From assembly GCA_951406725.2 (NCBI GenBank), contig OX597814.1:103354001-103418000 (forward strand): a stretch of DNA of 64,000 bases, read 5' to 3'. Both the position numbers and the translations under genes were made by a program. Positions 13,157 to 48,800 of the stretch are shown in pieces (positions within the stretch are counted from its first letter, which is position 1; each line of letters opens with the position of its first letter). The notes beneath the pieces were generated by a model. The model saw only the letters and a list, made by a program, of their open reading frames with translations. It did not search any database and was not told the origin of the DNA. The DNA is from Octopus vulgaris (Eukaryota).

Positions 13157-13163
13157 ATGTCCG
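13157..13163 (+). CDS. SEPHS2: SPS predicted coding exon 1 (ATG TCC G)
   Basis: ATG 13157, weak donor gtcaat at 13164, 85-nt intron ending in a strong ttttccttttcctttcag acceptor; gives in-frame [10 protein letters not shown]. Alternative start is ATG 13293. Confidence 0.55.
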
Positions 13164-16100
13164 GTCAATATTTTCTCCTCTACTCGGAATTTTGGTCGTG
13201 TTATTTCCCATTCGAGCGGAATTAGAAATTTTTTCCTTTTCCTTTCAGATGTTCAGGAAGCCTGCCCGCCGGAGGAACCGCGAGATCTGTCGATGCGGCG
13301 ACCTTTCGATCCTGTCGCTCACGATTTGGATCCGAAATTCCGACTCACCAAATATGCTGACCTGAAGGGATGAGGGTGTAAGGTCCCCCAGGAAGCTCTG
13401 CTCAAGCTTCTTGAGGGACTACAACAGGACAGCAGTGCCCAGGAGTCCGAACACTTCCAGTACATCGCCAGTGTTCCTCGAATAGGTAAGAAATGGCTTC
13501 ACCAATTTTTTTTATTCTATCGGAAACGAGACATTGCTGCTACTGTCTCGGCATTAACCACCAAATCGGCTTTTATTTCGCCGATCTGGATGAAGTAAAG
13601 AACCCAGCTTATTTCTTTTAGTCGCAAATAATTTTCCTAAGTTTATTTTATGATTTTGGGGTAGATTTTGGTGTGTACCTTGTGTTTGTGAGACATAAAT
13701 AGGTTTTTTAATGTGACTCCCTTTCGATGCTCTCCTCTCCATAATGGCGGCTCTCAGCGCGTGGTGGCAGGTGTGTGTGTGTGTGCGTACGTGCGTGTGT
13801 GTTTGTCTGTGTCTGCAGTATACGTCGGCAGGTGTGTTTGTGTTGGCAGGTGTGTGTTTGTGTATGTCTGCAGTATACGTCGTTGGCAGGTGTGTGTGTG
13901 TCAACAACTTGTTGCAACAACATCCCCCCCACCCCCAGTTGCTCGTCTTTTCTTCTAAAACACTTATTTAAAAACATCTTTTATTATTATTCAGTCACAC
14001 TGTTTCTTATTGTTATTCCTGACCATCAATCCCGACTCAACACAAATTCTATCGTCTTTCATTTTTCAATTTACATCAAAAGATTTCCTACAAAAGAATT
14101 TTCCCTTTTCTGTTTTTCCCGGCGACTTCTTTCAACACAAATTTTCTCAACAGAACCAACAAATTAACTCAACATTTTCCCGTTTATTTTGCATTTTAAT
14201 TAAGAAAAAAAAAACGCAATTTTTTTCCTTCGGGCTCAGATTTTTATTTAAATTTCATTAAATTTTAACAAAGCTCGTTATTTTTCTTTCTCGTTTTAAA
14301 AATATATTTGCCAAAGACTTTTATTTAGATTAAATTCATTTCTTTAATTTTCCTATTAATTACAAATTTATTTCAATTTAAAAATTTGCTGTATTCTTTC
14401 TTAGACCAACCTAGTTGGCTCGTATTATTTAATTTTAACATATTTCTACTTAAATTATTTAATTAATTCAGTATATCTGAGGGAAGATTTAATTTAAAAC
14501 CAATTATTTCCAATTAAAAACAAAATATGCACATTGTTTCGCTTTAATGTTTTCCTCTTAATTTTGACAACAATCTGTAAGTTAGGGTTGTTTTTGTTTT
14601 ATAACAATATGAAATATTTGGTTCATGTTTGCTTATTAATATTTCTTTTATTTCATTTCCCTCTTCATATTCTTCCCTCTTTTCTTGGTGCAATTTTTCA
14701 ATTCTAGACTTACGTCATCGTAAACTTGGCATAAATTAGCCAACTTTTAAGACATTATTTCAACGTTGCTGCAATTTTCTACATTTTTAATTACTTATGT
14801 AAAAAAAATTGACATCTTTTGCTTACAATTCTATTAAAACACCTATTCGAAGTTAATAATTTTACTATCTTGCTTGGCCATATTCGATGCAAGTCTACCA
14901 AATTATCGATTTTCATCTATTCATAAATAAAATCGAAAATTTTTTTTATAAAACAAGCAAAAAAAGTCTTTGAGATATTATTATGAGATTCCTGAAAGAG
15001 ACAATGCGATAGGGGAGAGGGACCAAACGGTGTAAAAAGTTGATGGTGGGAAGTGTGACGAAAGATATGAAAACGGAAGCCGGTGGTTGTTAAGGGATAA
15101 CCTGCCTGTAGGGGCAGGGACTAGTGACTTCTATAATCCAGGGAAAGATGATTGTGGTAATAGAGGAGGCAGATGACTACAGGTGTTGTCAGTTAACAAT
15201 AAACCACTCTACCTAGGACTTAATGAACTGTAAAAATTCTTTGGTAGAGTACCACACCTTTGTAGCTTGGCTGTTGCTAAGAGAATTGAGTGTTAGGAAT
15301 TTAGCATGCAGGTAGGGTGTCCCTCACAGCTTGGCTCATAACATAATCCTAAAAGTGGAGTTTGAAACCAGCTGTGGGAACTGTAATGGTTTAGTTCTTC
15401 ATGGATCAAGATGTCTAAGATTTAGAGATGAAAATTCCTGATATGGAGGCAAAAGCCGAAAATTAGGAAGGCTGAAAGTAAATCGAGTAAAGAGAAAAAT
15501 ATTATAAAAGTAGAACTCTGCTGTCAAGATGTCAGCGTACAACTGCTGTATCTCAACTGGCCTACTTCATATATACGAGGAATGTGGGGTTACAAGTGGA
15601 GGAGGTAAACTTGTGTGGTTTTGTGGTAGATGCACAGCTGTAGTTAGCTGTGAGAGGATGCAAGGAATATATTCCATCCAATGCTTCTGTTAGTTAAGTT
15701 ACCAAATAAAATGTAGAGAAGTGTTGTGAAAGTAGTCAGAAGAAAACCAGGCTGGAAAAGTGCAGGGAGCCATTATTTGTGAGGGTAAAGGTTAGATTGG
15801 TATAATTCTTGTGTATGAAGTGTGATGGATGGTTGTGGAACGTGGCCGTTGAGTGTGGGATGTGTAGAAGCTGGGAAGAAACGAGGTGAACATGTTTTGT
15901 TGGATGTGTATGGATAATGGGACAAAAGTGGTTGGTCTGAGAGGAAGGAAGTTACAGAAAATTAAGATTGAGGAAATAATAGAGAGAAGTGAAGGCTGAA
16001 TTTTAGAAAAGAGATAAAGGAGTGTGGTGGGATGCTGTGCTGGAGAAGAGTTGTTTACCTGGTAAAACTGGAGATAAGGATGATACAGTGTAGATCTCAA

Positions 16101-28100: not shown

Positions 28101-31100
28101 TTAATGTCTGCTTTACATACTGGCATGGGTTGGACAGTTTGACTGAGAACTGGCAACTCTGAAGGCTTTACCAAGCTCCAATCTGATCTGGCAAGATTTC
28201 TACAGCTGGATGCCCTTCCTAATGCGAACCACTCCGAGAGCGTAGTGGATGCTTTTTACGTGCCACATATTCCAAGCTGCTGACTTTTAAAATTATTCTT
28301 ATTTTTCTGTACTTACTAATTTTTATTTTCACTTGAATTTTCTCTGGATACCTAGTTCTAATACGGAAATTGCTGTTTCAATGCCCTTTTGACACTCCAC
28401 ACCCTCAACTCAATTTTGATTTTTGATTTTCATGTTAAAAGAAAAAAATATTTGTTCAGTGAAATTGAAATTTTGCTTTGTACTGATTTTCTTTTGTAGG
28501 AATTGGTATGGACTCGAGTGTGACACCCCTGCGGCACGGTGGGCTCTCATTGGTACAAACAACGGACTTTTTCTATCCCCTTGTAGATGACCCTTACATG
28601 ATGGTAAGTAGTCCTTCAGATATTTTTAGCCATGGGGAACAAAAACGTTACTCTAAACATGTTAATCTGTCTCACTTGTCAAGTCTTTTGTACCCAAAGG
28701 TTTTTAAGAAGACTGGGACCATAAACAGCTCATGGCTAAACACTTCTTAATATTCCAATTTTATCTAAGGTGGCAAGCTCACAGAATTGTTAGCATGCCA
28801 GGCAAAATGTTTAGAGGCATTTAGTCAGTCTTTGCTTTTCATCCTTTCAAGAGGTCAATAAAATAAGGACCAGTTGCATGGGAGATGCATTCAGTTTAAC
28901 CCCCAGCACCCACTCCCTGCCATTCTCTGAACTTGCATGCTTTGTGCCAGAATTTGAAATCCATATTTCAGTTTTATCCAAATCAACGTTTTAAGTAATA
29001 AATATAAGAATAAGATAATGTAAAAATATTATTTTGCTACCTTGAGATTTATGTGATAATTTATTTTAGAAAATTGTAATGTAAACAGGAATTAGTAAAA
29101 TAAAGAAAAAAAAAGCTGTTTAAAAAAATCAAGGAGATCCAATAGATAAGGAATTCAAATATTTGGTGAGAGGGGTGGATTAAAAATTAACGAGTATTGG
29201 GAAAATTAGCCATAAGAGTGTTGGAAAACAATTTGTTTTTGCTCACTGTTGTCTGCATTTAGTATGTTGTTCAAGCAGAAGGCGCTCATTAGATATATGT
29301 CATTAATAACCTAATTAGTGAATTAACTCTAAATTCTTTCTGTGGTTCATTGAAGAGACGTTTATCACTGTAAAGTACTTATTCCTTCAGCCCATAGTGT
29401 CATTTAATCAATCTAAAGAAAATTCAGAGTACCCCATTGCTTCCCATTTTTGTTTTGGTAGTGGCGGTGGTGGGATCCTAAGGTTTAATTAATCTGCACT
29501 TTGCTCTCTGTCCTTCATGCAGGTATTGCTAGGCAAAGTTCTAGTGGCTACATCAGTTTAGCCCTTTCGTTACTATATTTCTGACCAAAATACACCCCTT
29601 ATGTGTTTCAATTAATTTCTAACATAATCATAAATTTAGTCTGGTTTCATTAAACAGCTATAACCTTTTTATTTATCGATATTTTAATGTGATTTTTGGA
29701 AGATAATTTAATGAAAGGTTTTCAACCAATTCTATACCATAATTTTTGTCACAAAGTGACTCTCATTGCAGGTAGATACAGGTAAATACAGGTAAATTCA
29801 ACAAAGTATCATCATCATCGTTTAGCGTCCGTTTTCCATGCTAGCATGGGTTGAAAATTCAAATTTTTGTTCAAACATCGCTATAGAAAATGGGTTATTA
29901 GCTAATATTCAATTGGGTATACAACAAAATTTTACTATAGAATTTGTTATTCTGGGTAACTTTCTGATACCCATAATAATATTTATGGCAAAATAGGCCT
30001 TAATTTCATTTAAGGTTGTGGGAAACCACAAACTATCCTTTCTTTCGCTTTGTTTACATTTAGCGTAATGATTCGTTTCTGCCGTAATGATTTCAAATAG
30101 GCTCATTTGAAAAAGTAAAAAAAAATAGTCTACGTGCTTTACTCTCCTGGGAAAGACTGTGGCTTGGTCCAGTTTCTTCAGAAAAATCACTGGAAGAAAC
30201 AGTTTTTAAATTTTCACTCCATTCAGGTGCCAATTCATTTTCTTTATCGCTGTCGGAGCTCTCGGATTCACTGCTTTCACTTTCGGAAAATGAAACATCG
30301 GATTCATTATCAAATACCACATGCTTTTTTTTTTTTTCAGTCATAGTTAGATTTATCAAGGTCTTCAGTAGGAAATCCTTCGAATTCTGACTCACTGCTT
30401 GATAGAATGAAATTCATATCCATTTTTTGTCAGAGTTACAAATTTTGAAAACACAATAGGAACAAATTTGGAAAAAAATCTCCCAAAATTCACGGAATTA
30501 AAATTACGCGTCGATCGTCGATGAACTGTTTACAAAGTATAATCACGTGTTTTCACGAATGTACTAATGAGATTTGCTCTGATATTCTCATTTAAATATG
30601 AATAGGTAATTATGGGCAGTTTTGGGCGGCTTGGTCACATGAACCAAAATTTATTTCGGGTGGCTTTGGGCGGTTTGGTAACGAAAGTGTTAGCTGTCAA
30701 ATGCTACAATTTGTAGGAATTGGTTCCCATTGCCTGCCCCTATTTAGAGCAGTTTTATGTCAGTTCTTTCCCTTTATGTATTATCTGTTGAGCAGTGTTG
30801 TCTTGTGACTTCTGTCTTCCTTTTTGGCTCAGATCTGAAGTTCTTCATCAAGAAGTTTAACCTGTTGCTCCTCTTTAAATGCTAATTACTATTGTATGTC
30901 ATTAACAATGCCCACCATGGATTCTCTTCTCCTATTATTGATATCCATTCAGTAAAAGTCTGGTTCCCTGTTCCACACCCTGTGTTCATCTTTCAATGTT
31001 TCAATAAAGACAAAGACTATCTCAGGCAGACAGAAATGGAATATTGGTTTCATATCCATTATCATCATCATCAAACGTCCACTTTCCATGTTGGCATGGG

Positions 31101-32155: not shown

Positions 32156-35100
32156 TGACAGGCTTCTTACAGTTTCCGTCTACCAAATCCACTCACAAGG
32201 CTTTGGTTGTCCCGAGGCTATAGTAGAAGACACTTGCCCAAGGTGCCATGCAATGGGCCTGAACCTGGAACCATGTGGTTGGGAAGCAAGCTTCTTATTA
32301 CACAGCCACGCCTTCACTTATTCATGTAAAATATTGTTCCTATTTTCATTCTCTTCGTGTAACAATCTGTCCTGGGGTCAGGTTTTAAAGAATTGAAATT
32401 GAACTGATTGAGTTTAGATGATGTTATATTTAATACCAATCACCCTAGTGACTGAAGTTAAATATAAAAAAGTTGTCTAATCCAGAATATTTCCATGTCT
32501 TTTATAAATAAAGTTTAGTCTTGTGGTGGTCTCTTTTAAAATTTCACATGTTAGAGGTTAGGGTTTCACTCAACCTGTGTGGCCCATCTTATCACGAATG
32601 TATATAGGTGGTTACATTAGGTCACTTGTGCTCCGTTCACTCTACCTTTACCCTCTCCTCCTCTACTGCCTGTTATCATCACCTTGTGTTATGTCAGCTT
32701 ATCTAACAGCATACTCTAGTTCCTTTTCTCAAAGACTCTGTCATCTTCCTGCCATCTCAGTTATATTGCCTTTGATACACCTACCCATCTCTCAGAATAT
32801 TATCTACTCTATGACTCCTTCTCCTCCTCTTCTTGCTCACATCCCTCTCATCACTATCACTCATATTTCTCACTCTAATGGAACAGACAACTGAAAAGTG
32901 ACAGCCTGGAAAGTGGTTGGTGTTAAGGGGATCCACCTGTGGAAACCAAAGCATAATGGAGCCAAGTGTATAAAGTCCCCCTGTCTCGGAGAGCAGACCT
33001 GTCCCACTCGTGTCAGCATGGACAGTGGACATAAAATAATAATGAAAGAAACCAGAGTTAGAAATGAAGAGGAACCAAGTTTGTTTAAGGAAGCAGGACA
33101 GCTCTCAAAGAACAGAAGTTTTAGAGTGGGGAGTTGGTCTCTATGTTTGCAACGGGGTTCAGCAACAGGCAGTCAGGTGATGGAAAACTAAAACAGTTCC
33201 TCTGATGGGTTTCAGCATAGTTTTCATGTGATTATACAAGCTTTGTACCTAAAACTATAGAAGATATACTGTGAGATTGAACCCCAAAACATGAAGTTTG
33301 TAAAGCAAACTTAATCTATACTACCATAGCTGCACCAATAACTTGTATAGAAAGGATTGAATTATCTCCCTTTGTTTGAACTTTATTTTTAATTTTTAAC
33401 CCTTTCGTTACCAAACCGCCCAAAGCCGCCCGTATTTACCTATTCATATTTAAATGAGAATATCAGAGCAAATCTCTTTAGTACATTCGTGAAAACAGGT
33501 GATTATACTTCGTAAACAGTTCATCTAGAGTTTTGTACAACGATCGTCGTGTAATTTTAATTCCCTGAATTTTGGGAGATTTTTTTTCCACATTTTTTTC
33601 GGCATCGATTTTTCTTCAACTTTGAAAATGGATAGGAGTTTCATGTTATCAAGCATTGATTCCAAATTGGAAAATTTGTGAAACAAATACTGGATACTGC
33701 ATGGATTTAGTTTTTATACAGGGAAAATAATGTTAGTCAGCATGGCCTAGGGAATGATATGGTCTGGAATTTATCACTTCCATACCATAATCAGGGCCGT
33801 ATATTATTTTTTGACCGATTTCTTTAGTTTGGTCAAACGTGCGGTGGATTCCAGTATTTCACTTTATTCCACCTTTATGGTACACCTGTTGTGCATTAAA
33901 TTCAACTGATGATATAGTGATGTGCACAATTCTTCTTTATCAAAATTTTGTTGCATACCCATTTGAATATTAGCTGATGATTCATTTTCTATGGTGATGT
34001 TTAAACAAAATTTTAATATTTTTACCTTTTGCTCAATTTAAAATTTTAATATTTTTACCTTTTGCTCAATTTACCTGGATTTACTTGTAATTAAAGTCAC
34101 TTTGAGACAAAAGTTATGCAATAGAATTGATTAAGAATCCTTTCTTTAATTATGTTCCAAATATCACATTAATATGTTGATAAGTAAAAAAGTTAGTTAT
34201 TTAATGAAACAAGCCTAAATTCATGATTATTTTAGAATTTAATTGAAACTCATGAGGGGGTGTATTTTGGTCAGAAATATAGTAACGAAAGGGTTAAACT
34301 TAGTATTTTCTTAAGTATTAACAGTTTGTTTCTGCTTGTTTGATTGGTTTAGTAAATATTTGTGAATTAATAATGTCCTGTTTGTGTACAAGGTCTACCA
34401 TTGTATATTTTATACAAGACAGAACACGTAACATTGAACAAGTTTGTTTAACCTATTCCATTTAGTGGGACAACACTTCCCAAACAGTAAATCTCTTAAA
34501 AGTGTGATATCTATTTTTCATTGGATGTACAATGACTATCATCTAAATTGAATTAAATAACGATTTCATGTAAATAATTCTGTTTCCTTTTTTTCTTTTT
34601 AGGGTAAAATTGCTTGTGCCAATGTGTTAAGTGACTTGTATGCCATGGGCGTCACCGAATGTGACAATATGCTCATGTTGCTTGGTGTCAGTAATAAAAT
34701 GACAGAAAAAGAAAGAGATGTGGTCGTTCCAATTATGATGCGTGGTTTCAAGGTCAGTTTTACTGTTTTCATTTTAAATTAGTGAATTAATTAGAAAGAC
34801 ACTCTTAATTAATATATCTGTCTGTTGTTTGCTGTGGTATTTATTGCTTTAACCCTTTAGCATTTAAACTGGGCCATATCAGGCCCAAATATCTGACCTG
34901 CTTTATGTTAACACTAGCCAGATCTGGCTTCTCGCACCTACCCTACAATGTCATGCTAAAAGTAAGTAATCACATTGAAATCTCAAGGCTATGAAATCAT
35001 GTATGATTAAATTCATATCGATGCGAATAAATTTGCTTTACATTTGACAAAATAATCTGAAAGCTAAAAGGATAAAAGTTTGATGGATGAAACAATTCGA

Positions 35101-38100: not shown

Positions 38101-41100
38101 TAACTTCTAAAATACAAAATTTTGTAAAAAACGTTTAGAGTAAACCCTGTTCTATGTGACACATTCTACCAGTATCAGAAGTTTCAAAGTGTTTAGTTAT
38201 AAAAAAATGAATTAAATAATCTGTATGTCAAATTGAATAAATCTGAAATGGATGAAAGGCAAAGTCGACCTCGGTGGAATTTGAACTCAGCACGTAAAGA
38301 CAGAAGAAATACTGCTAAGCATTTTGCCTGGTGCGCTAACATTTCTGCCAGCTTGCTGCCCCAGAATGTAAACATTTATTTTAGAAATATATTCTTATTG
38401 GTTGGGGGCGTTACTCCTTTACTTACTTCCTCGCTTATTTTATATTTTATGACATTTCACCTCATAACTTATTTTCTACTAATTTTTGTTCAATGCGACT
38501 AACAATTCTGTATTCCTCACGCATTTTTCTATCATTTAAGCCTAAGAAAAGTATACTTTTATTTTAAAATTAAAAAAATTATGTTAATTGAAGAAGGATA
38601 CCTGCTTTACTGCCCAGCTTTAGACCTCACATATTTTGTTGTAATTTTTTTTTCTTACTGAACCAAATCTCAAACTATTTATGCCAAAGTGTAGCTGAAG
38701 AAATGTCCTCTTTAAGACTATTAACAATTTGTAATTTAGTTGAGAACTGAATTAGTGGTGAAGCTTGGAAGCTGCTGTGATTGACGAAATGGTTGACTTA
38801 AGAATATATTCAACCACTACTGTGGTTGAATGATTACAAATCACACACTTTGTGTAACAGCATCAAAGTTAAAGTAAAATGGTTTGGAAGTGAGAACTGG
38901 ATCTTGTTAGAAAAGAGTGGGGATGCAATTCTACATGTCCATTCTTTTCTCTCACTCATCTATGTTTGGAGTTATGATGACCAAAACTACCATTAGGTAT
39001 CCACATCTCATACTGTACAGACTGCAATCTCCTCCTTCACTCTGCCAGACTTTCTACTGGATCAAGCACCCTGACTACATCAGTAAGTGAACTTGGACAC
39101 ACAGATATAGGTGATGGTGGTGGTGCAGTTAGTGTGACTTTAGTGAAACAACTACAGGTAATTATAGGATATTATCACTGATGGTGATGACAATATGTGT
39201 CTCCTGCCAACATTAGTAAAATGTATTACCTGGTCCATGCCATTTGGGTGCATGGACAGAAGTTGGAAAATATAGAATATTTCCAGTATATATATGTCAT
39301 ATAAAAGTAAACTTAAAACATTTGTGGCTGTTGTACAGTTAGTATTCAATGAAATATCATCATCATCATCATCATCGTTTAACATTCGCTTTCCATGCTA
39401 GCATGGGTTGGACGAATGACTGAGGGCTGGCAAACTAGATGGCTGCACAAGGCTCCAATCTTGATCTGGCAGAGTTTCTACAGCTGGATGCCCTTCCTAA
39501 CGCCAACCACTCTGAGAGTGTAGTGGGTGCTTTTATGTGCCACTGGCATGGGGCCAGTCAGGTGGTACTGGCAACGACTTCGCTCGAATCCTTTACACAT
39601 GCCCCCGGCACAGGTGCCAGTAAGGTGATGCTGGTAACGATCACGCTCGAATGGTGTCTTTTACGTGCCACCAGCACGGAAGCCAGATAGCCACTCTGGC
39701 AACGATCACGCTCGGATGGTGCTCTTAATACCCTACTAGCACGGGGCTTGAGTGCCAGTAAGGCGACACTGGTAACAATCACGCTCGAATGGTGCCTTTT
39801 AAGTGCCACTGGCAAGGAAGCCGGTTAGCTGCTCTGTCAATGATCACACTCGTATGGTGCTCTTTGCACCCAGCTAGCATGGACGCCAGTCATCGAATTT
39901 GATTTTGATTTTTGAAATATAGGTTTCAGATTTTGGCACAAGGCCAGCAATTTTGGGGCAGGGGCTGATTCAGTGACATCAACCTCGGGACTCAACTGGT
40001 ATTTAATATAATTAACCTCAAATGATTGAAAGGTGAACCCGACTTTCGTGGAATTTGAACTCAGAACATAAAGACAGATGAAATGCCACTAAGTATTTTT
40101 CTAATGATTCTGTCAGCCCCCCCCCCCTCCCCCGAACTAATCATGACCCGAAGACACCAATAATAGAATGTGGCCAATGGAAATACAAGTTGTAATCTGT
40201 AGTTGATAGATGATGATGAATAAGTTGAAATTATATTTAGTTTAATTTTTTTCTGTTTAATTGTTTTTTTTTTTTTCCTGAAAACTTTCCTATCCTATTT
40301 TCTTGTAATTTTTTTCATTGAATCTCTTGTAAATTCCTGAAGGACTTGGCTGAAGATGCTGGCACCCAGGTATCAGGTGGTCAAACAGTTATTAATCCCT
40401 GGCTGACCATTGGTGGAGTAGCAACTACAGTATGTCAACCGAATGAATTTATAATGTAAGGAAACAAATATATTTATTCTCTTTTATCTTATTCGTTTCG
40501 CGTGTTAAAATGCGGCCATGCTGGGGCACCGGCTTGAAGAATTTCCAGTCAAATGAATTGATCCCAGTACTTTTTTTCTTTTCAAGCCTGTTACTTTATC
40601 ATTCTTTACTGCCAAACTGCTAAGTTACAAGGGCTGTAAACAAACCAATACTGGTTGTCAAGTAGTAGTGGAGGACAAGCAAACACACATTCACATGATG
40701 GGCTTCTTTCAGTTTCCGTCTACCAAATCAACTCACAAGGCTTTGCTTGGTCCAAGGCTGTAGTAAAAGAAACTTGCAGTGGGACTGAACCCAGAACCAT
40801 GGAGTTAGGAAACAGACTCCTTTCCACACTAATGATTTAAATTAATAAAACACTTTCGACTAAAACATTTTTACAAAGTTAATTCCCCATAGCTGTACTT
40901 TGTTGTCTTTAAAATACTAATTGGTTGTGTCTCGATTAAGGACCGAGATATTTGGTCTACTGCTATACTCAAGAAGAACCGTCTGCCACAGAACTGGTGC
41001 TGGTGCCACATAACAAGGCATCCAACCATAGAAACCCTACCAGAACAGACCCTGGAGCCTGGTGTGGCCCTCGGCCTTACCAGCTCCAGTCAAACCATCC

Positions 41101-44100
41101 AACCCATGCCAGCATGGAAAACGGATGTAAAATGATGAGTTCTTCAACAGTCTCATTTAATGTCATCAATAATTATTTTCAAAAAATAGTAAAATATTTT
41201 CCTTGCAATTAGAAGATTGACTCCACACTTTTGTAATGTCTTATAGAAACTGGTTTTTCCATAGTTATAGCCTAAAACAACTTATGAGAGGGAAGGAGAG
41301 AGGGACAGGCAGAATGAAATGAACGTACCCGCACCAGACAAGTTGCTTGGGCTCTGGCATGGCTATCTTCTAAAAGAGTCTAACAATATTTGATACAAGC
41401 GCCCAACTGTTTTCCTTGTCTCTCACCATCATATTTAGTTAATCTTACTACAGTCCACTCTGAAGGTGGTCAGTGATTTCTTTTTTTTTTTTTTTTTTTT
41501 CCTGAAGGTTTTCTTACAGAATACTTTGCTTTCTCTTTAATATTGGTTAAATTTTTTGTTTTATTCAGTATTTAAAATGTTTTTTTAGAATTTTAGTTAC
41601 TATTGGAAACAGTTTGTTGTTTGTAAATAATTTTTATCTTTATCAGTTGATTAGTTAAATATGTAAATATATGTGTATAGTTAAATCCTAGACAGGGCAT
41701 TTTAAAGGTACTTCTACAGTCAAAAGCCGTATCAACTGGGCTGAAATCTCAAGAGATTATTCCTTCTAGATTCCCTCAAATATTGAACTCTTTTTGTAAA
41801 GAAAAGTATTTAAAAAAATGCTTCTTTTCCTGACTTTATTTCTTTCAGGCCAGACAATGCTGTAGTGGGTGACGTTCTTGTTTTGACCAAGCCCCTGGGT
41901 ACTCAGGTTGCTGTGAATGCCCATCAATGGTTAGATGAACCTGAACGAATGTCTCGGCTCAAAATGGTTGTCAGTGAAGACGATATTCGTAAAGCTTATC
42001 ACAGAGCAATGTGCAGCATGTCAAGACTAAATCGCACTGGTATGTGTTACGATTTACCTTACTAATATCTTCTTATAATGATAATAGACTCAACCAACCA
42101 CACTTAGTGTGTATGAGTTCCATCTTACGCTCCTCTCGCTTCTACAGTAAGAGTTACTCCTTTGCTTTTGTTACTGTTACAATATTTATTCTCTTGACGA
42201 ATGTATTCGAATTTACCGTTTCTATCAACAGCACTTAGTGTTCTTTTTTTTTTAAAGAAATTTTGAATCATCGTTTCTTTTTTATTGTATTTTTAAAAAT
42301 TAATTCTAAATAAAATTTTGATCATTCTGTAACTATTAATGGCTTCATCTCATTTGAATGCTTATTTTTTGTTGTTCTTTCCAGCTGCTAGACTGATGCA
42401 CAAATATAATGCACATGGTGCCACTGATGTCACAGGCTTTGGCCTAATTGGCCATGCAAAGAACTTGTCAAAAATTCAGAAAAACGAAGTCAGTTTTGTC
42501 ATTCACAATCTGCCAATAATTGCCAAAATGGCTGCTGTCAGTAAAGCCAGTGGAAATATGTTTGGATTGTTTCAAGGACAGTCCGCAGAAACATCTGGTA
42601 AGTTGACAACTAAAGCATTGATGTCTCTATTTTTTTTACATTAGCCGATTCTGTGTGCATGCGTTTACAGCTGTTACTACATTTTGGGACTGGCTTTCCC
42701 TTGAAGGCAAATGAAAGTAAAAATCCTTCATCCATTGCTACACAACAATTTCAACTTTGCCATACTTTGAGTGATACAGACATTTTGATATTTTGTAAAT
42801 TATTTAGAAAACTTTCATACTAAAATTTTATCATTAATTTAGAAATTAAAATTTTATTAGTAAATCTGGTACCATGTAAAAAGCACCTGTAGCAATGCCC
42901 CATAAAAAGCACTGGTGCTGGTGCCACGATGTTTAGAAAACAAAGTAAATCTACTCCAGAATAGTTGAAAAGTTTCGTTCTCTTTGTCCAGCACTGTTTA
43001 CAGTATCAGAAAGTTTGAAATTTCTGATTGTCTCCATATCCTCAATGAGTTAGGCTTGATACAATTTGTTTTTGTAGCATTTGAAAAAAAATCAGTCAAG
43101 TTCACAATTATGGTGTATGAAACTTTTATTTAATAACAGTAGAAATAAGGCCCCTCGCCCCACCTTAAAAAAACGAAAGTTGTGTTAAAAAATGTTAGAT
43201 GGCTTAGAATGTTTAACCCTTTTGTTACCAACCCGGCCGAAACCGGCTCTGAGTACAAATGCCTTGTTTTCATAAGTTTTGAATTAAAATCTTCAACCAA
43301 ACCTTAGTCACAATTTATGTTTGTAACACTAACTGAATGATAACCAAGTTATTTTACTAAATTCTTTGTTATATTTAAAGTAATTCAAAGAAACACAGAG
43401 CATCTCAAAATAAATACGGTATCGAAAGGGTTAATTGATGATGATGAAGTAACAATATTTATGTTAATGGTTTGACTTAACCCTCTCATTACCATATTTC
43501 TGTTGAAATCCTCTCTTTGTTTCAATTGAAAATAATGAAGACTTTAGTAAAATAACTCTGTTATTATTAACCGTTTCGTTATTTCTAACCAAAGTGGAAT
43601 CGCATGTTTTCACGAATGTATTGACTAGATTTGTGCTGAAATTCACAATTAAATGACAATGGGTTTACTCGGCTGGCTTGAAAGTTGTGTTAAAAAATGT
43701 TAGATGGCTTAGAATGTTTAACCCTTTCGTTACCACCCTGGCTGGGTTGATTGTTTGAGCCAAAAAATTTTTCAGCTGTGAAATTTTTAAGCTGGTGTCT
43801 GGGATATAAATTGAAAGTTTTAATTTCCATTGTTATTTATATCATAGAACCAGGGGTATTTTCAGGTGGGTAATAATTAATGATTGATAATTGTTTTTCA
43901 TTTAGTAGGAAATGGATTTTCTTTGTCCATAAAGCTTTTGATCATTCCTGTCCTGCTGATGTAATAAATGGTTTATATGAGGTGCTGTTTCTTTTGTAGG
44001 TGGTTTGCTGATTGCGCTTCCCCGAGAACAAGCTGCTGCATATTGCAAAGATATTGAAAAGCAAGAGGGGAACCAAGCTTGGATTATTGGAATTGTGGAG

Positions 44101-44184
44101 AAGGGCAATCGAACTGCCCGAATCATCGACAAACCGCGGGTAATAGAAGTACCAGCAAAGGAAAAAGATGGAGAATTGTGGTAA
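13157..44184 (+). CDS. SEPHS2: Selenophosphate synthetase (selenide, water dikinase; SelD/SPS family) with in-frame UGA at the Sec position; 8 coding exons, ~399 aa
   Basis: Exons 13157-13163, 13249-13485, 28500-28603, 34603-34752, 40343-40455, 41849-42039, 42385-42597 and 44000-44184 join through GT-AG introns with consistent phases (1200 nt). Motifs [70 protein letters not shown]. Called SPS2-type because of UGA plus SECIS, although the sequence resembles insect/vertebrate SPS1. Confidence 0.95.
13249..13485 (+). CDS. SEPHS2: SPS exon 2, containing the UGA (Sec) codon at 13371-13373
   Basis: (D)[77 protein letters not shown](G); donor gtaag at 13486. Confidence 0.95.
13382..13420 (+). promoter_or_regulatory. 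Stem-loop 3' of the Sec UGA (SRE/readthrough-type element)
   Basis: ggtcccccaggaagc (13382-13396) pairs with gcttcttgagggact (13406-13420): 14 of 15 positions paired including 2 G-U; 9-nt loop; 8-nt spacer gggtgtaa after TGA. Confidence 0.75.
17160..18185 (-). mobile_element. RTE LINE reverse-transcriptase fragment (decayed)
   Basis: [43 protein letters not shown] and [11 protein letters not shown] on the minus strand, with frameshifts. Confidence 0.85.
19285..19672 (+). mobile_element. RTE-tail-derived SINE-like repeat
   Basis: aaaagcacccactacactc..ggttgacgttaggaagggcatccagctgtagaaac..ccaacccatgctagcatggaaaacggacgttaaacgatgatgat. Confidence 0.8.
20737..21070 (-). mobile_element. RTE-tail-derived SINE-like repeat
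   Basis: Reverse complement of the 19285-19672 family. Confidence 0.8.
21200..21410 (-). mobile_element. tRNA-derived SINE (family A)
   Basis: Close reverse complement of 35100-35335. Confidence 0.8.
21414..22200 (-). mobile_element. Degenerate piggyBac-family transposase fragment with internal duplication and SINE insertion
   Basis: Minus-strand frameshifted reading resembles VTI(D)[22 protein letters not shown] (the piggyBac ..IDE.M..FKG..F.QY...KP.K.GIK region), preceded by YW.T..RDR..FLHI. Confidence 0.6.
24014..26330 (-). mobile_element. RTE LINE, 3' half (RT domain to tail), interrupted by a + strand SINE-like insert at ~25828-26039
   Basis: ORFs [71 protein letters not shown]; [10 protein letters not shown] upstream; (CAT)n tail at 24014. 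Confidence 0.92.
27336..27540. mobile_element. piggyBac-type MITE (ccctttagcatttaaac family)
   Basis: Right end aatgctaaagggTTAA; same family at 34853-35072 and ~35412-35570. Confidence 0.6.
28500..28603 (+). CDS. SEPHS2: SPS exon 3
   Basis: (G)[34 protein letters not shown]; acceptor ttttgtag, donor gtaagt. Confidence 0.97.
29562..30689 (-). mobile_element. Internally deleted piggyBac element with N-terminal transposase remnant
   Basis: TIRs CCCTTTCGTTAC and GTAACGAAAGtG, flanked by TTAG on both sides; acidic N-terminus and [41 protein letters not shown] (PGBD-like). Confidence 0.85.
31870..32315 (-). mobile_element. Composite SINE (family B) with internal microsatellite
   Basis: tttcagtcatttgactgtggccatgc...ggcttcttacagtttccgtctaccaaatccactcacaaggc...gaacc; related pieces at 5488-5620, 40490-40830 and 49955-50290. 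Confidence 0.7.
33400..34293 (+). mobile_element. Internally deleted piggyBac element, same family as 29562-30689, opposite orientation
   Basis: TTAA (33396-33399), CCCTTTCGTTAC ... GTAACGAAAGGG, TTAA (34294-34297); shared subterminal sequence; central TGYC...[15 protein letters not shown] remnant. Confidence 0.88.
34603..34752 (+). CDS. SEPHS2: SPS exon 4
   Basis: [50 protein letters not shown]; acceptor tttttag, donor gtcagt. Confidence 0.97.
35100..35335 (+). mobile_element. tRNA-derived SINE (family A), near full length
   Basis: ggcagtgagctggtagaaacgttagcacgccggg (A-box-like), gagttcaaattc (B-box-like), conserved body ctttcatcctttcggggtcgataaattaagtaccag; further copies at ~890-985, 27130-27330, 28765-28960, 38245-38360 and 39925-40115. 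Confidence 0.8.
35577..35951. mobile_element. Tc1/mariner-type MITE
   Basis: TA-ccatatttgatggcctacaagatgtac ... gtgcatctcataggccatcaaatacag-TA: imperfect ~27-bp TIRs with TA flanks. Confidence 0.6.
36804..37292. mobile_element. Foldback MITE with long, internally repetitive TIRs
   Basis: catggaaaaatgtgagcatgaaaagtaatattcttaagatt... mirrored by ...aatcttaagaatattacttttcatgctcgcatttttccatg; TA on both sides. Confidence 0.75.
39356..39915 (-). mobile_element. RTE-tail-derived SINE-like repeat with expanded ~60-bp internal units
   Basis: (CAT)n start, family core, then repeated ggcaacgatcacgctcgaatggtgc units. Confidence 0.8.
40343..40455 (+). CDS. SEPHS2: SPS exon 5
   Basis: [37 protein letters not shown](M); AAG acceptor, donor gtaagg. 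Confidence 0.95.
41849..42039 (+). CDS. SEPHS2: SPS exon 6
   Basis: (M)[63 protein letters not shown](A); acceptor tctttcag, donor gtatgt. Confidence 0.97.
42385..42597 (+). CDS. SEPHS2: SPS exon 7
   Basis: (A)[70 protein letters not shown](G); acceptor ctttccag, donor gtaagt. Confidence 0.97.
43217..43430. mobile_element. piggyBac-type MITE (214 bp)
   Basis: TTAA, CCCTTTTGTTACC ... GGTATCGAAAGGG, TTAA. Confidence 0.8.
44000..44184 (+). CDS. SEPHS2: SPS exon 8 (last coding exon)
   Basis: (G)[60 protein letters not shown]; TAA at 44182-44184. Confidence 0.97.
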
Positions 44185-46226
44185 TCGCCTCCCCCTCCTT
44201 CCTAGTTCTACCAATGGTTATGTGGACCAACAAGTGGGCATAATGTTGTGAGGAGTTGGTAACGAAGTTCAGAAATGGTTAAATCTTTAACAACAAAACA
44301 ATTTTTAGAGCTTTTGTTGAGAAATGTAATTCCTCTAACAAAACCATCAAAGTTTTTAGTTTAATCTTAATTCCTGGTCACTGATTTCTAATCTCAATTT
44401 TTGATCATTTTTCTCTTTTAGATTAGTTTAATCTTTGTATTTTGGGCATTTCTTTATGGTAACATTTTGATTTTCAAATTTGAAAAATCAAAACTCTTTT
44501 ATTGTATTTCAACTTTAATAGTAGCGTATTTAACTAAACTTGTCTGTTTTCACCTTAATTTCATCTCTTTTACAGAAATAGTAATTTTTAAAAACTTTTT
44601 ATTCATACAATTGCAATTTTTATCTCTAGCAGACACATATGAACGAATAATATGAATTTTTCTGGCTTAAAATAAATTCCTGTTCTGAGGTTTAAATGTT
44701 ACCAAATGCTTCTGGAGTGGTCAGATTTTAGAGTTTAATTTAGAGAGAATAAGATGAGAATGAGGAGGAGGAGGAAGAGTATTTCAGGCCAATTTACTAT
44801 AATTTGGTACCAGAACTGCTGGAATTGTCTTCTCTTGCCATAGCTTTATTTATCAAAAACTATTTTCGCACATTTCAACACAGAGCCAGAATAATTTACG
44901 TTTTCTGCCTAAATTTTTCTCTTAAACACTTAAATATTTTCTGGAAATAACCACTTCTATCTTGGAATTGTTTTTTTAGCCATTTAAAAACAAAGAGAAA
45001 TCGTTCAGATCATTTTGTCCATGATGGAATTTTTCAGTTTCAACAGATTTAGTCAATTCACTTGCCAAATAAGTACAACTTTGAAATTTCTAAAAATAAT
45101 CTAAGGTCTTGTTTGTTTCCTCACTCTATTCTAGATAATATATATTTAATATGACCTGAAAAATCTCCAGTATTTCTGCTACTGCAACAGTTAAGAATTA
45201 TCTTTTTCAAAATTTAGAAAGTTTTGTCTTATTACTTCAAACTTTTGAAAATTGTTCCAACTTTGATGTGAAGTAATTTTTTTCAATGTTTTCTAAAAAA
45301 TGAATTAATGTGCTATTTTCTATAAATGCCTCTGCTTTTGTGTTCCATAAAAGAAGAAAAATGGATTTGTTTGCTTCTCTTTTGCAATTATATTTGCCCC
45401 TTTCATATTGGTTAAAAGTCCTTGTCCATGTAAATATTGGTTGAACCGCTGAACATAAATTGAACTTTGACTGGTCTTTGATATAAGCTAATCAATAGTT
45501 ACTGTCCATTCCATTCCAAGGCATTTTGCTTTGTCCAGGGTTGTTGTCATTCAATTCTAACCACAGTTAGGAATCCTGCATCCGACTTTTCTTTTTTTTT
45601 TCTCATTTCATCTCCACTTTTCAGCCACTCTCATCCCGTCCTTCCCCCAAGTCCTTTTTCTAGTAAACATAAATAACTTTGTTCATTAAGTTTTGGCATT
45701 CATTAAGGATCTACTTTGGAAAATTGAAGCTGGTTTAAAAAAAAAAAAGCAAAAAAATTTTATTTTACAAAATTTTATTTTTTCTTCGTAGAAAATGTTG
45801 TTTAAAATTTGATGCAAAAATCGTGTTTTTGTAACTTAATTTGGTATTTTTACTGTCCCCTAATATTTTTTCTTGCTTCCTTCAGAATACCCTTTACAAT
45901 TTTGTAACATTTTTATTCTGCTAAGGAAGCAATAAAAAATAGCGCATATTCAACTGTAAACAGGGACCTGTTTTTGGTTGCCAATAAAACCAGAAATGTC
46001 TCCCTAATATTGTGGTTCCATCCCTGGAGAACAACTGTCTGTTGAGAAAGCTGCTGGTTTTTAGGAGTCAATTTTTTTCTATGTATAATTTTTTTTAAAT
46101 GTTCAAAAGAATTTTTTTGTAAATTTTTCTTGTGTTGTTAATTCTAGTTTTGTACTAATGAGACCTTGAGCAAGTCCTGTACATCTAGATATTTAGTTCC
46201 AGGAAATCTCTTGTTGAAAGCTGTTT

Positions 46227-46297
46227 AATGGTCATCTTAATGAAATGACATTGGGAATTCGATGTCGAACCAGTGGCATGGATAACTGATGACCATT
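46227..46297 (+). promoter_or_regulatory. SECIS element (type II) in the SPS 3' UTR
   Basis: Helix I aatggtcatc/gatgaccatt (10 bp perfect); core A-TGAA (46240-46244) opposite GGAT (46280-46283); helix II atgacattgg/ccagtggcat; unpaired GAA (46255-46257); mini-stem ttcg-atgt-cgaa. Confidence 0.92.
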
Positions 46298-46335
46298 TTA
46301 CGTTCAACGTGATTTCCAATCATCTTTAAATCAGA

Positions 46336-46341
46336 AATAAA
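46336..46341 (+). terminator. Distal poly(A) signal of SPS
   Basis: AATAAA ~40 nt after the SECIS, followed by a GU/U-rich tract (ttctgttttctgtgttttttttt). Confidence 0.7.
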
Positions 46342-46442
46342 ACACCAGTTTCACCAGATTTCTGTTTTCTGTGTTTTTTTTTTCTTTTCTTGGAATATTG
46401 ATGAAGGATGGCTTTGATGTGAATCTTTTGTTTATAACTGCT

Positions 46443-46806
46443 GAGTTGTTTTTGAGTGTTGGGCCTGACGGAGGCAAGGTGGCTGAGTTCCTTTCGAGTG
46501 GACCTCATGAAGGCAAGGTGGCTGAGTTCCTTTCGAGTGAACCTCATGAAGGCGAGGTGGCCGAGTTCCTTTCGAGTGGACCTCATGAAGGCGAGGTGGC
46601 CTAGTTCCTTTTGAGTGAGCCTCACGGAGGCGAGGTGGCCGAGTTCCTTTCGAGTGGGCCTCACGGAGGCAAGGTGGCCGAGTTCCTTTCGAGTGGGTCT
46701 CACGGAGGCGAGGTGGCTGAGTTCCTTTCGAGAGGGCCTCATGAAGGCGAAGTGGCCAAGTTCCTTTCGAGTGGGCCTCACGGAGGCGAGGTGGTCGAGT
46801 TCCCTT
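46443..46806 (+). repeat. 39-bp minisatellite, ~9 copies
   Basis: Unit gagttcctttcgagtgggcctcacggaggcgaggtggcc starts at 46485, 46524, 46563, 46602, 46641, 46680, 46719, 46758 and 46797. Confidence 0.95.
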
Positions 46807-46859
46807 TGGCAGGGAAATGGGTTGATGCAAATGGTTTGTTGAGCTGCCACAATATCCTC

Positions 46860-48800
46860 AGGAAACATGCTAGTTATCTATCAATATGGTGGCCACAGAA
46901 GAGCCAGATTGACAACATTCTCACAAGAAAGAAGAGATAGTAGTGGATGCCAAGTCCCTAATGAGATAAGTGGTTAGTGACTCCAGATTTAGGGATAGAA
47001 GGACTCTGAGATGCAAACCAGACTGGGAAAGAAGGCTATGTAAGCTTAAGGATCATTCGAATGATTGGAGATTTAGAGGCATTCTAATTGAAGCATTTGA
47101 CGAGAAGATAAAGATTGAGGACAACTGGAAACTTTTACGGGACAACCTACTTAAGAGTGACAAATTTGTGGCTGGGGCAAAAATTTCGTGAAACTGAAGG
47201 TGACATGGTGGTGGAATAGTGAGGTAAAGAGGGAAGGAAAATGGGGGCAGCAGAGAACTATATCTAGTAGGCAGACGACAGGTCTATTTAGTAAGGGCAG
47301 AAAGAAAAAAAGTTCGCCATTGTTTTACAACTTGAGGATGAGAGGCGATAGGCGTGATGGATTGCATAATAGTGTTTAAGAGAATCAAGATGTGGGAGAG
47401 AAGTGTATACGGATGGAGAGTGGCCTTAGTGACCCTGAAAAGAAAGAAGCACGGGAGTGCTATTAGGAAAGGTTAATAAACGTAGAGAATGCATTGGAGA
47501 GAGAGAGAGAGAGTCTCCCCAACAGAGGATGCCAGCTATCAGTTGTGTGCTTGACACGGTGATGGAAGATATAAATGCAGGGAAAGCCCCTGGCCCATCA
47601 GGAATCACAGCTGAGATGCTTAAAATATTTGGCAGAGATAGGTTATAGCCTAGCCAGCTGTATACTTAATCAGGTTATATAGGTCGGTGTCATCGCAATA
47701 ACTGCTTTAAAAGCATCAGTCAGCTGTTACAAGCGTAAAGATGTTTTAGATAGCGGTAACTACAGAGAGCCAGGTTAGGAAGATTATAGCAGAGTAAAAA
47801 GAAATTTGATGAGATGCAGTTTGATTATGTGTCTGGAAGGAGTGCTACTGATGCCTTCTTTCTGGTGAGATAATTGCAGGAAAAATATTTAGCCAAGATT
47901 AAACCATTGGCATCCATTGATTTGGAGAAAGCCTTTGATAAAGTCCCTTACTCTGTAATATGGTGATCTCTGAGGACGCTGAGAGATAGATGAATGGCAT
48001 GTGAAAGCAGAACAAGCCATGAACAAGGCTGCTGTCAGTAAGAGTTAACCACGAGTACAGAGACGAACATAATAATGTGCAGGTGGGCGTTCACCAGAGC
48101 TCAGTTCTCCTCCCATTCATCATTGTACTGTAGACCATAACAGGAATTTAAGACCACGAGCACCAGGGAACTACCATATGGTGAGAGCCTCATTCTCATC
48201 GCGGAATCTGTAACAGAATTAGAAAAGAAATTCCAGGTGTGGAAGCAAAACTTGGAATCGAAGGGTCTTAAAGTTAACATGGCAAATACCAAAGTTCTAT
48301 TAAGCAAGAAAATAGGACCTTACCCACTTCAGGTAAATGGCCTTGCTCGATATGCGAGAAAGGTGTAGGCAGGAATTCTATACAATTATGGACACACATG
48401 AGGTGCAGTGGAATTTCAGGAAGAAAGAGTGTTTGCATATGGAAGATGCATAGAAGTCGTGAAGACTAATGATACACAGGAAATTGATTTTCTGAAATGC
48501 CTTGGAGGTTCCCTAGCGGTGGTGGATAATTTCTGTTATCCACGCAACTGGCGGAGAAAGTTATGAAAATATAGTCGCTGGAATAAGAATAGGATGAAGA
48601 ACATTCAAGAGAGCTTTTATCTCTGTTGACAACAAAACGTCTTTCTCACCGAGTAAAAAAAAAATCGTGCGATGTGTGTGTGTGTACGAACTTCGATGCT
48701 GCATTGTAGTGAGACGTGGTCCCTAAATGCAGACGACACGCGAATACTAGAGAGGAATGAAGTATGTTTCATTGGATGTGCAGTGTCAGAGTGATACGTA
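46860..48800 (+). mobile_element. Decayed RTE LINE (end of endonuclease through RT)
   Basis: SQIDNILTRK, VTWWWNSEVK, GKAPGPSGITAEMLK, MQF..GRSATDAFFL, DLEKAFDKVP, GLKVNMANTKVL and SETWSLN motifs with many frameshifts. Confidence 0.9.

Follow-up and report, generated by a model that had tools for sequence, protein, structure and literature searches.

The selenophosphate synthetase (SPS) gene in this part of the Octopus vulgaris genome carries a UGA inside its reading frame, which raises the question of how that codon is read. We addressed it in the 64,000-nucleotide stretch of DNA analyzed here (the window; all positions are those of the window), concentrating on a sequence some 2 kb beyond the stop codon that folds into a long rod. 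Our answer is that this sequence, 46202-46317, is very probably a type II selenocysteine insertion element (SECIS) at the 3' end of the SPS2 mRNA; by recruiting a SECIS-binding protein it would cause the UGA to be read as selenocysteine. The evidence comes from the gene model, the fold and motifs of the element, and its position; at each step, other readings have to be weighed.

An SPS gene with a single in-frame UGA

With a named insect SPS protein as guide, seven coding exons could be mapped to the + strand; the first of them begins at 13249 and the last ends in a stop codon at 44182-44184. The gene and the elements around its UGA are as follows:

13157..13163, +, probable first coding mini-exon, 7 nt (ATG plus 4 nt), with a weak donor
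13249..13485, +, SPS coding exon with the in-frame UGA
13371..13379, +, in-frame UGA (13371-13373) in the motif G-U-G-C-K of the catalytic site, then the GGGTGT readthrough hexamer
13382..13420, +, SRE-like hairpin (predicted fold), starting 9 nt past the UGA
28500..28603, +, SPS coding exon, 104 nt
34603..34752, +, SPS coding exon, 150 nt
40343..40455, +, SPS coding exon, 113 nt
41849..42039, +, SPS coding exon, 191 nt
42385..42597, +, SPS coding exon, 213 nt
44000..44184, +, last SPS coding exon, ending in the TAA stop (44182-44184)

The joined exons form one frame, and the gene is intact, with the UGA as its only internal stop. The mini-exon would precede an 85-nt intron, an arrangement that the read-through of a relative with 91% identity does not contradict. 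The six exon lengths after the UGA exon (104, 150, 113, 191, 213 and 182 nt plus the stop) are those listed for Strigamia SPS2 (PMC4561486). The octopus gene differs from the unduplicated SPS2-Sec genes in its introns, which reach 15 kb.

Directly after the UGA stands the readthrough hexamer, as defined in PMC4561486, and then the SRE-like hairpin. Its predicted energy of -23.4 kcal/mol was reached by 10/500 dinucleotide shuffles and by 4/2000 synonymous resamplings. Within the 64-kb window the UGA exon occurs only once. A Ciona-type alternative Gly exon was likewise rejected, none being present within the same 64 kb, and we set aside ADAR editing of the UGA to UGG, since ADAR disfavours a 5' G neighbour.

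The predicted protein is identical to an O. vulgaris record at 265/265 aligned residues and to an Argonauta record at 312/315, and its residues 82-396 are identical to an Octopus sinensis record at all 315 of 315 positions; the last of these scores 239 bits on the SelD model TIGR00476 (cut-off 125). These identities mark the window as octopus DNA. The 120 matches listed, out of 908, included one named SPS record for each octopod species. None of the three records compared above reaches back to the UGA position; about 85 N-terminal residues, the catalytic site among them, are missing. The SECIS candidate described below points to an active SPS2 with Sec in octopus and, judged from the sequence, the octopod records that start after the UGA are likely to represent a misannotated selenoprotein. 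Correcting them would be useful, although the correction is of a common kind. The O. sinensis record is named 'inactive selenide, water dikinase-like'.

Upstream of SPS, the last coding exon of VPS35 lies at 2505-2681 on the + strand (E 1.5e-20 to PDB VPS35), and 1140-2170 has the look of a decayed transposase, which by eye we take to be mariner-like.

A putative type II SECIS within a 116-nt rod

The sequence past the stop codon is predicted to fold into a single rod, whose parts are listed here:

46202..46317, +, whole rod: candidate type II SECIS plus basal extension (fold, pair table, 520-nt context)
46202..46224, +, 5' arm of the basal extension; partner 46300-46317; 17 bp
46227..46297, +, candidate SECIS itself, from helix I through the 4x4 internal loop, core, helix II and GAA bulge to helix III
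46240..46244, +, A plus UGAA, 5' strand of the core (consensus UGAN/KGAW)
46255..46269, +, GAA bulge, in which 46256-46257 are the conserved AA, then helix III of 4 bp capped by a 4-nt loop
46280..46283, +, GGAU, 3' strand of the core, fitting KGAW

Helix I pairs 46227-46236 with 46288-46297, Watson-Crick in 10/10 pairs, and is capped by the 4x4 loop. In the core, U46241-G-A-A46244 faces G46280-G-A-U46283, with A46240 immediately 5'. Helix II (46245-46254/46270-46279) has 10 positions, made up of eight Watson-Crick pairs, one U.G pair and one A.G mismatch. Above it come the bulge, at 46255-46257, and helix III (46258-46261/46266-46269), whose pair probabilities are 0.86-0.93 in a 520-nt context. 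A first-pass annotation had described a canonical AUGA...AA...GA layout, and every element of it is found in its place in the sequence and in the pair table. That annotation had also described pairing that continues below helix I to give a rod of about 116 nt; the predicted fold agrees, with 17 further pairs in three stems (46202-46208/46311-46317, 7 bp; 46212-46218/46303-46309, 7 bp; 46222-46224/46300-46302, 3 bp).

The rod has a predicted energy of -41.8 kcal/mol, its MFE and centroid structures coincide, and none of 200 shuffles was equally stable (z -5.61). Within 520 nt of its own context the fold is kept, with pair probabilities of 0.68-1.0 except at the A.G mismatch, and the 71-nt core by itself gives a z of -4.2, matched by 2/500 shuffles. 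Stability alone is neither unique nor decisive, because a coarse scan of the whole window (10 shuffles each) puts 12/1,598 segments of 100 nt at z<=-5.6, many of them in microsatellites. The + strand folds better than the - strand by 9.4 kcal/mol.

A long, stable hairpin with paired ends might instead be a microRNA precursor, a piece of a box C/D snoRNA or a miniature inverted-repeat transposon, and a weak SNORD113 match (11-16 bits vs a cut-off of 36) does lie over the 3' arm of helix I. The stem, however, is broken by an 8x8 open loop around the core, and the rod drew no miRNA family at E<=10, whereas the plain hairpin at 45864, described below, drew many weak ones. The rod is also single-copy in the window, its flanks are unmatched and its fold is strand-biased. 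We therefore rejected all three identities as scarcely credible.

Agreement with the type II consensus

Type II is the majority SECIS class (224/286 in SECISaln; PMC2647825), and its core consensus is A-UGAN/KGAW (PMC2647825, PMC3753652). The octopus core, UGAA/GGAU, fits this consensus: it has tandem G.A pairs, preceded on the 5' side by an unpaired purine. Including the core, helix II spans 14 positions with one mismatch outside the core, inside the known range of 11-16 bp, and the A at -1 and the U at -4 agree with the published type II consensus. As in other eukaryotic type II elements, an unpaired AA stands at a fixed distance, 12 nt after the AUGA, and is followed by helix III; helix I lies beneath an open internal loop; and upstream on the same strand is a gene whose in-frame UGA falls at a Sec/Cys site. 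The determinants of SBP2 binding given in PMC1874613 (a non-Watson-Crick third pair, a purine-pyrimidine fourth pair and an open internal loop) appear for the most part to be present. Several points go against the published pattern: helix II begins, after the core, with A-U where G-Y is commoner, and has U-A as its fifth pair and A.G in place of the frequent U.U as its third; the last core pair is A.G; and the basal stem is long.

We re-coded the four published SECISearch patterns (PMC3753652 supplement), so that what follows describes our re-implementation and not SECISearch itself. The element fits 4/4 patterns: strict, default, loose and loose+. Over the whole window and both strands, the strict pattern finds 4-6 sites and the default pattern 11; only 1/12 strict or default sites has a z below -3, namely the element, at -4.1. 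Between the stop codon and 46400 on the + strand, the sole strict, default or loose site is the one at 46240, to which loose+ adds one at 44685. From the strict-pattern false rate of 263 per 100 Mb reported for C. elegans (PMC3753652), fewer than 0.01 false matches would be expected in 2.2 kb. The SECISearch3 filters, applied by hand, were passed as well: the apical region is 15 nt (range 8-30), stem 2 is 10 bp (7-15), bending is 0, and the energy lies far below the cut-off of -4. A hand-computed SECISearch3 grade score of 3.0, without the Covels term, corresponds to grade B or better.

The test that the first-pass annotation had itself proposed, a covariance model, went the other way: Rfam gave no SECIS match in 4/4 scans covering the element. 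At the gathering threshold the whole window yielded 0 matches, and at E<=10 three scans over the element, including pieces of 75-96 nt, returned 8, 0 and 1 unrelated weak matches, none of them a SECIS. The element thus falls short of the covariance-model score of SECIS_1 (RF00031) and is not filed in that family. We weigh this negative lightly because Rfam 10 listed 15 human SECIS elements where 24 were known (PMC3467077); from that count, and not from a positive control of our own, we infer limited sensitivity.

The Rfam result would favour another explanation, in which the element either resembles a SECIS by chance or is a relic that the mature mRNA does not include, and the gene acts like an insect SPS1-UGA, with readthrough that inserts no Sec. 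The C-terminal exon, 95% identical to an insect Arg-type SPS, would suit this, as would the likeness at the UGA, the SPS1-UGA genes of Hymenoptera, Rhodnius and Pediculus having a UGA followed by the same hexamer and a stem-loop (PMC4561486). Those genes, however, are by definition without a SECIS, and the octopus gene, with a consensus-fitting candidate downstream, falls outside that class. SPS1-UGA is moreover described for insects only, and one Sec-SPS is found in a mollusc and one in an annelid. No other strict-pattern site lies past the stop, none of the other 11 of the 12 sites is stable, and a strong poly(A) signal lies directly downstream of the element. We consider a look-alike or relic very unlikely. 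The original assignment of the element as the type II SECIS of an SPS gene is instead supported by consensus, pattern, filters, position and the downstream poly(A) signal.

Listings of openly accessible papers showed no earlier description of an octopus SPS SECIS. A scan of bacterial and archaeal genome contigs for copies of the last SPS exon gave 221 pattern matches, 0 of them confirmed, and no related locus.

The basal extension

The pairs below helix I contribute -18.2 kcal/mol. With 30-nt flanks, this value was reached by 1/1000 and 3/1500 shuffles and by 1/1000, 13/1500 and 36/1500 random flank pairs (0.1-2.4%); with flanks of 40-60 nt, by 2-41/1000 and 4/600 shuffles and by 30-143/1000, 25/600 and 71/600 random pairs (0.2-14%). 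The extension is real in the predicted fold and moderately beyond chance. When the flanks were shuffled (150 shuffles), the probabilities of helices I and II were 0.89 and 0.86, vs 1.00 and 0.94 in the native sequence. The core folds largely without the basal stem, which is therefore best read as stabilizing support.

The extended stem had been put forward as a distinguishing feature. It is present in the fold, but it has a precedent in the mammalian GPX4 SECIS, whose 105-nt extended-stem form is reportedly preferred by SBP2 and L30 (PMC2792357) and comes near the 116-nt octopus rod in length, though it belongs to another gene. Helix 1 length, according to SECISaln, depends on local UTR structure (PMC2647825). 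Given this precedent and this variability, the basal extension is no new feature.

Position and the distal poly(A) signal

Between the stop codon and the start of the rod there are 2,018 nt, and between the UGA and the rod 32,829 nt. The first distance, previously put at 2 kb, falls inside the default Seblastian limit of 3,000 nt from the coding sequence and is unremarkable. The second had been given as 33 kb, which holds as a genomic distance; it is not remarkable, because nearly all of it is intron, and after splicing, assuming a UTR without introns, the UGA and the core would be 3,124 nt apart. The 3' UTR contains one GTRAG donor, at 44248, and it is weak.

The presumed end of the UTR is marked by one signal:

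46336..46341, +, distal AATAAA with a U-rich downstream tract (U fraction 0.675), likely 3' end of the SECIS-containing mRNA

It begins 19 nt past the rod, and a downstream U fraction of at least 0.65 was found at 0/27 intronic AATAAA. To judge from these signals, a 2.2-kb UTR that ends just past the SECIS is likely. Self-repeats cover 0% of the sequence from the stop codon to 46360, vs 28% of the window, and resume at 46440; 5/32 bins of 2 kb are repeat-free, so this sign is a modest one. About 100 nt past the distal poly(A) signal, at 46440-48800, there are tandem repeats of about 40 nt and then a decayed element, by eye presumably LINE-type.

Relation to known SPS2 genes and a proposed model for decoding

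The unduplicated SPS2-Sec genes of Capitella and Strigamia, as described in PMC4561486, have an in-frame UGA, a SECIS and an SRE-like stem, and the Capitella gene also has the GGGUGY hexamer. The same source takes hexamer plus SECIS as the marker of a dual-function SPS; Octopus is unnamed in its main text and in its searched supplements. The octopus gene has both and indeed all the features that mark dual-function SPS there: UGA, SECIS candidate, SRE-like stem and GGGUGY in one gene. The element is likely to be a type II SECIS of the ordinary sort, in a metazoan SPS2 that is probably unduplicated. Such elements are a well-known kind, one is expected here, and it would not surprise a specialist.

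In the established pathway, eEFSec with Sec-tRNA decodes UGA by way of the SECIS-bound protein. We borrow its steps for the octopus gene, starting from the fold, motifs, gene model, UGA and poly(A) signal found in the sequence. Splicing would take out about 30 kb of intron, bringing the core to about 3.1 kb from the UGA, and cleavage about 20 nt past the AATAAA at 46336 would retain the element in the mRNA. The tandem G.A pairs would form a kink-turn, to which a SECIS-binding protein would bind. By analogy this protein is probably of the SBP2L type, the type reported in Lottia and Capitella (PMC2746813). As in the established pathway, eEFSec and Sec-tRNA would then be delivered to the UGA, with the SRE-like hairpin assisting. 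The 17 basal pairs would act as an accessory support that steadies the fold, and not as a new module.

Upstream poly(A) signals and a possibly optional SECIS

Three further AATAAA lie upstream of the element, at 44671, 45931 and 45983, and some or all of the mRNAs could end at one of them, before the element. One is part of a second structure:

45864..45941, +, second predicted hairpin (z -6.8) of the presumed 3' UTR, whose 3' arm contains AATAAA 45931-45936

On one alternative reading the SECIS would be real but optional: proximal polyadenylation would yield SECIS-less mRNAs, on which GGGUGU and the SRE-like hairpin would drive non-Sec readthrough to an SPS1-like protein, the hairpin at 45864-45941 gating the proximal signal. 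Exactly such SECIS-less readthrough is proposed for unduplicated metazoan SPS2 in PMC4561486. The hexamer and the hairpin are both present at the octopus UGA, the UGA exon is single-copy within the window, and the opening energy of the AATAAA at 45931, 5.5 kcal/mol, is the highest of 65 on the + strand. But pairing is predicted for the distal AATAAA too (4.9 kcal/mol, rank 3 among the 65), so that masking does not tell the two apart. The three upstream signals compare with about 2 expected by chance, and they have no U-rich tract, their downstream U fractions of 0.28-0.38 standing against an intronic mean of 0.32. The second hairpin, too, shows no strand preference (-27.1 kcal/mol on the - strand vs -25.5 on the + strand), like a DNA-level inverted repeat, and it draws only sub-threshold miRNA-family matches, on both strands. 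An SPS1 paralogue may also lie elsewhere in the genome. On balance we think an optional SECIS unlikely, and it supplements the best explanation, Sec insertion directed by the element, rather than replacing it.

A more specific form of this idea, which we rate as still more doubtful, is that alternative polyadenylation lets octopus SPS make either a Sec enzyme or, by readthrough, an SPS1-like protein without Sec. The proximal AATAAA would be hidden by the hairpin at 45864-45941, and opening of this hairpin, or its editing by ADAR, would drop the SECIS. If it exists, such a switch would give a real example of the regulated exclusion of the SECIS that has been proposed for the ancestor of metazoan SPS; octopus 3'-end and editing data are available (PMC9699675). 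Nearby, a small predicted hairpin at 45966-45996 on the + strand holds the AATAAA at 45983 partly in its loop, with an opening energy of 3.1 kcal/mol.
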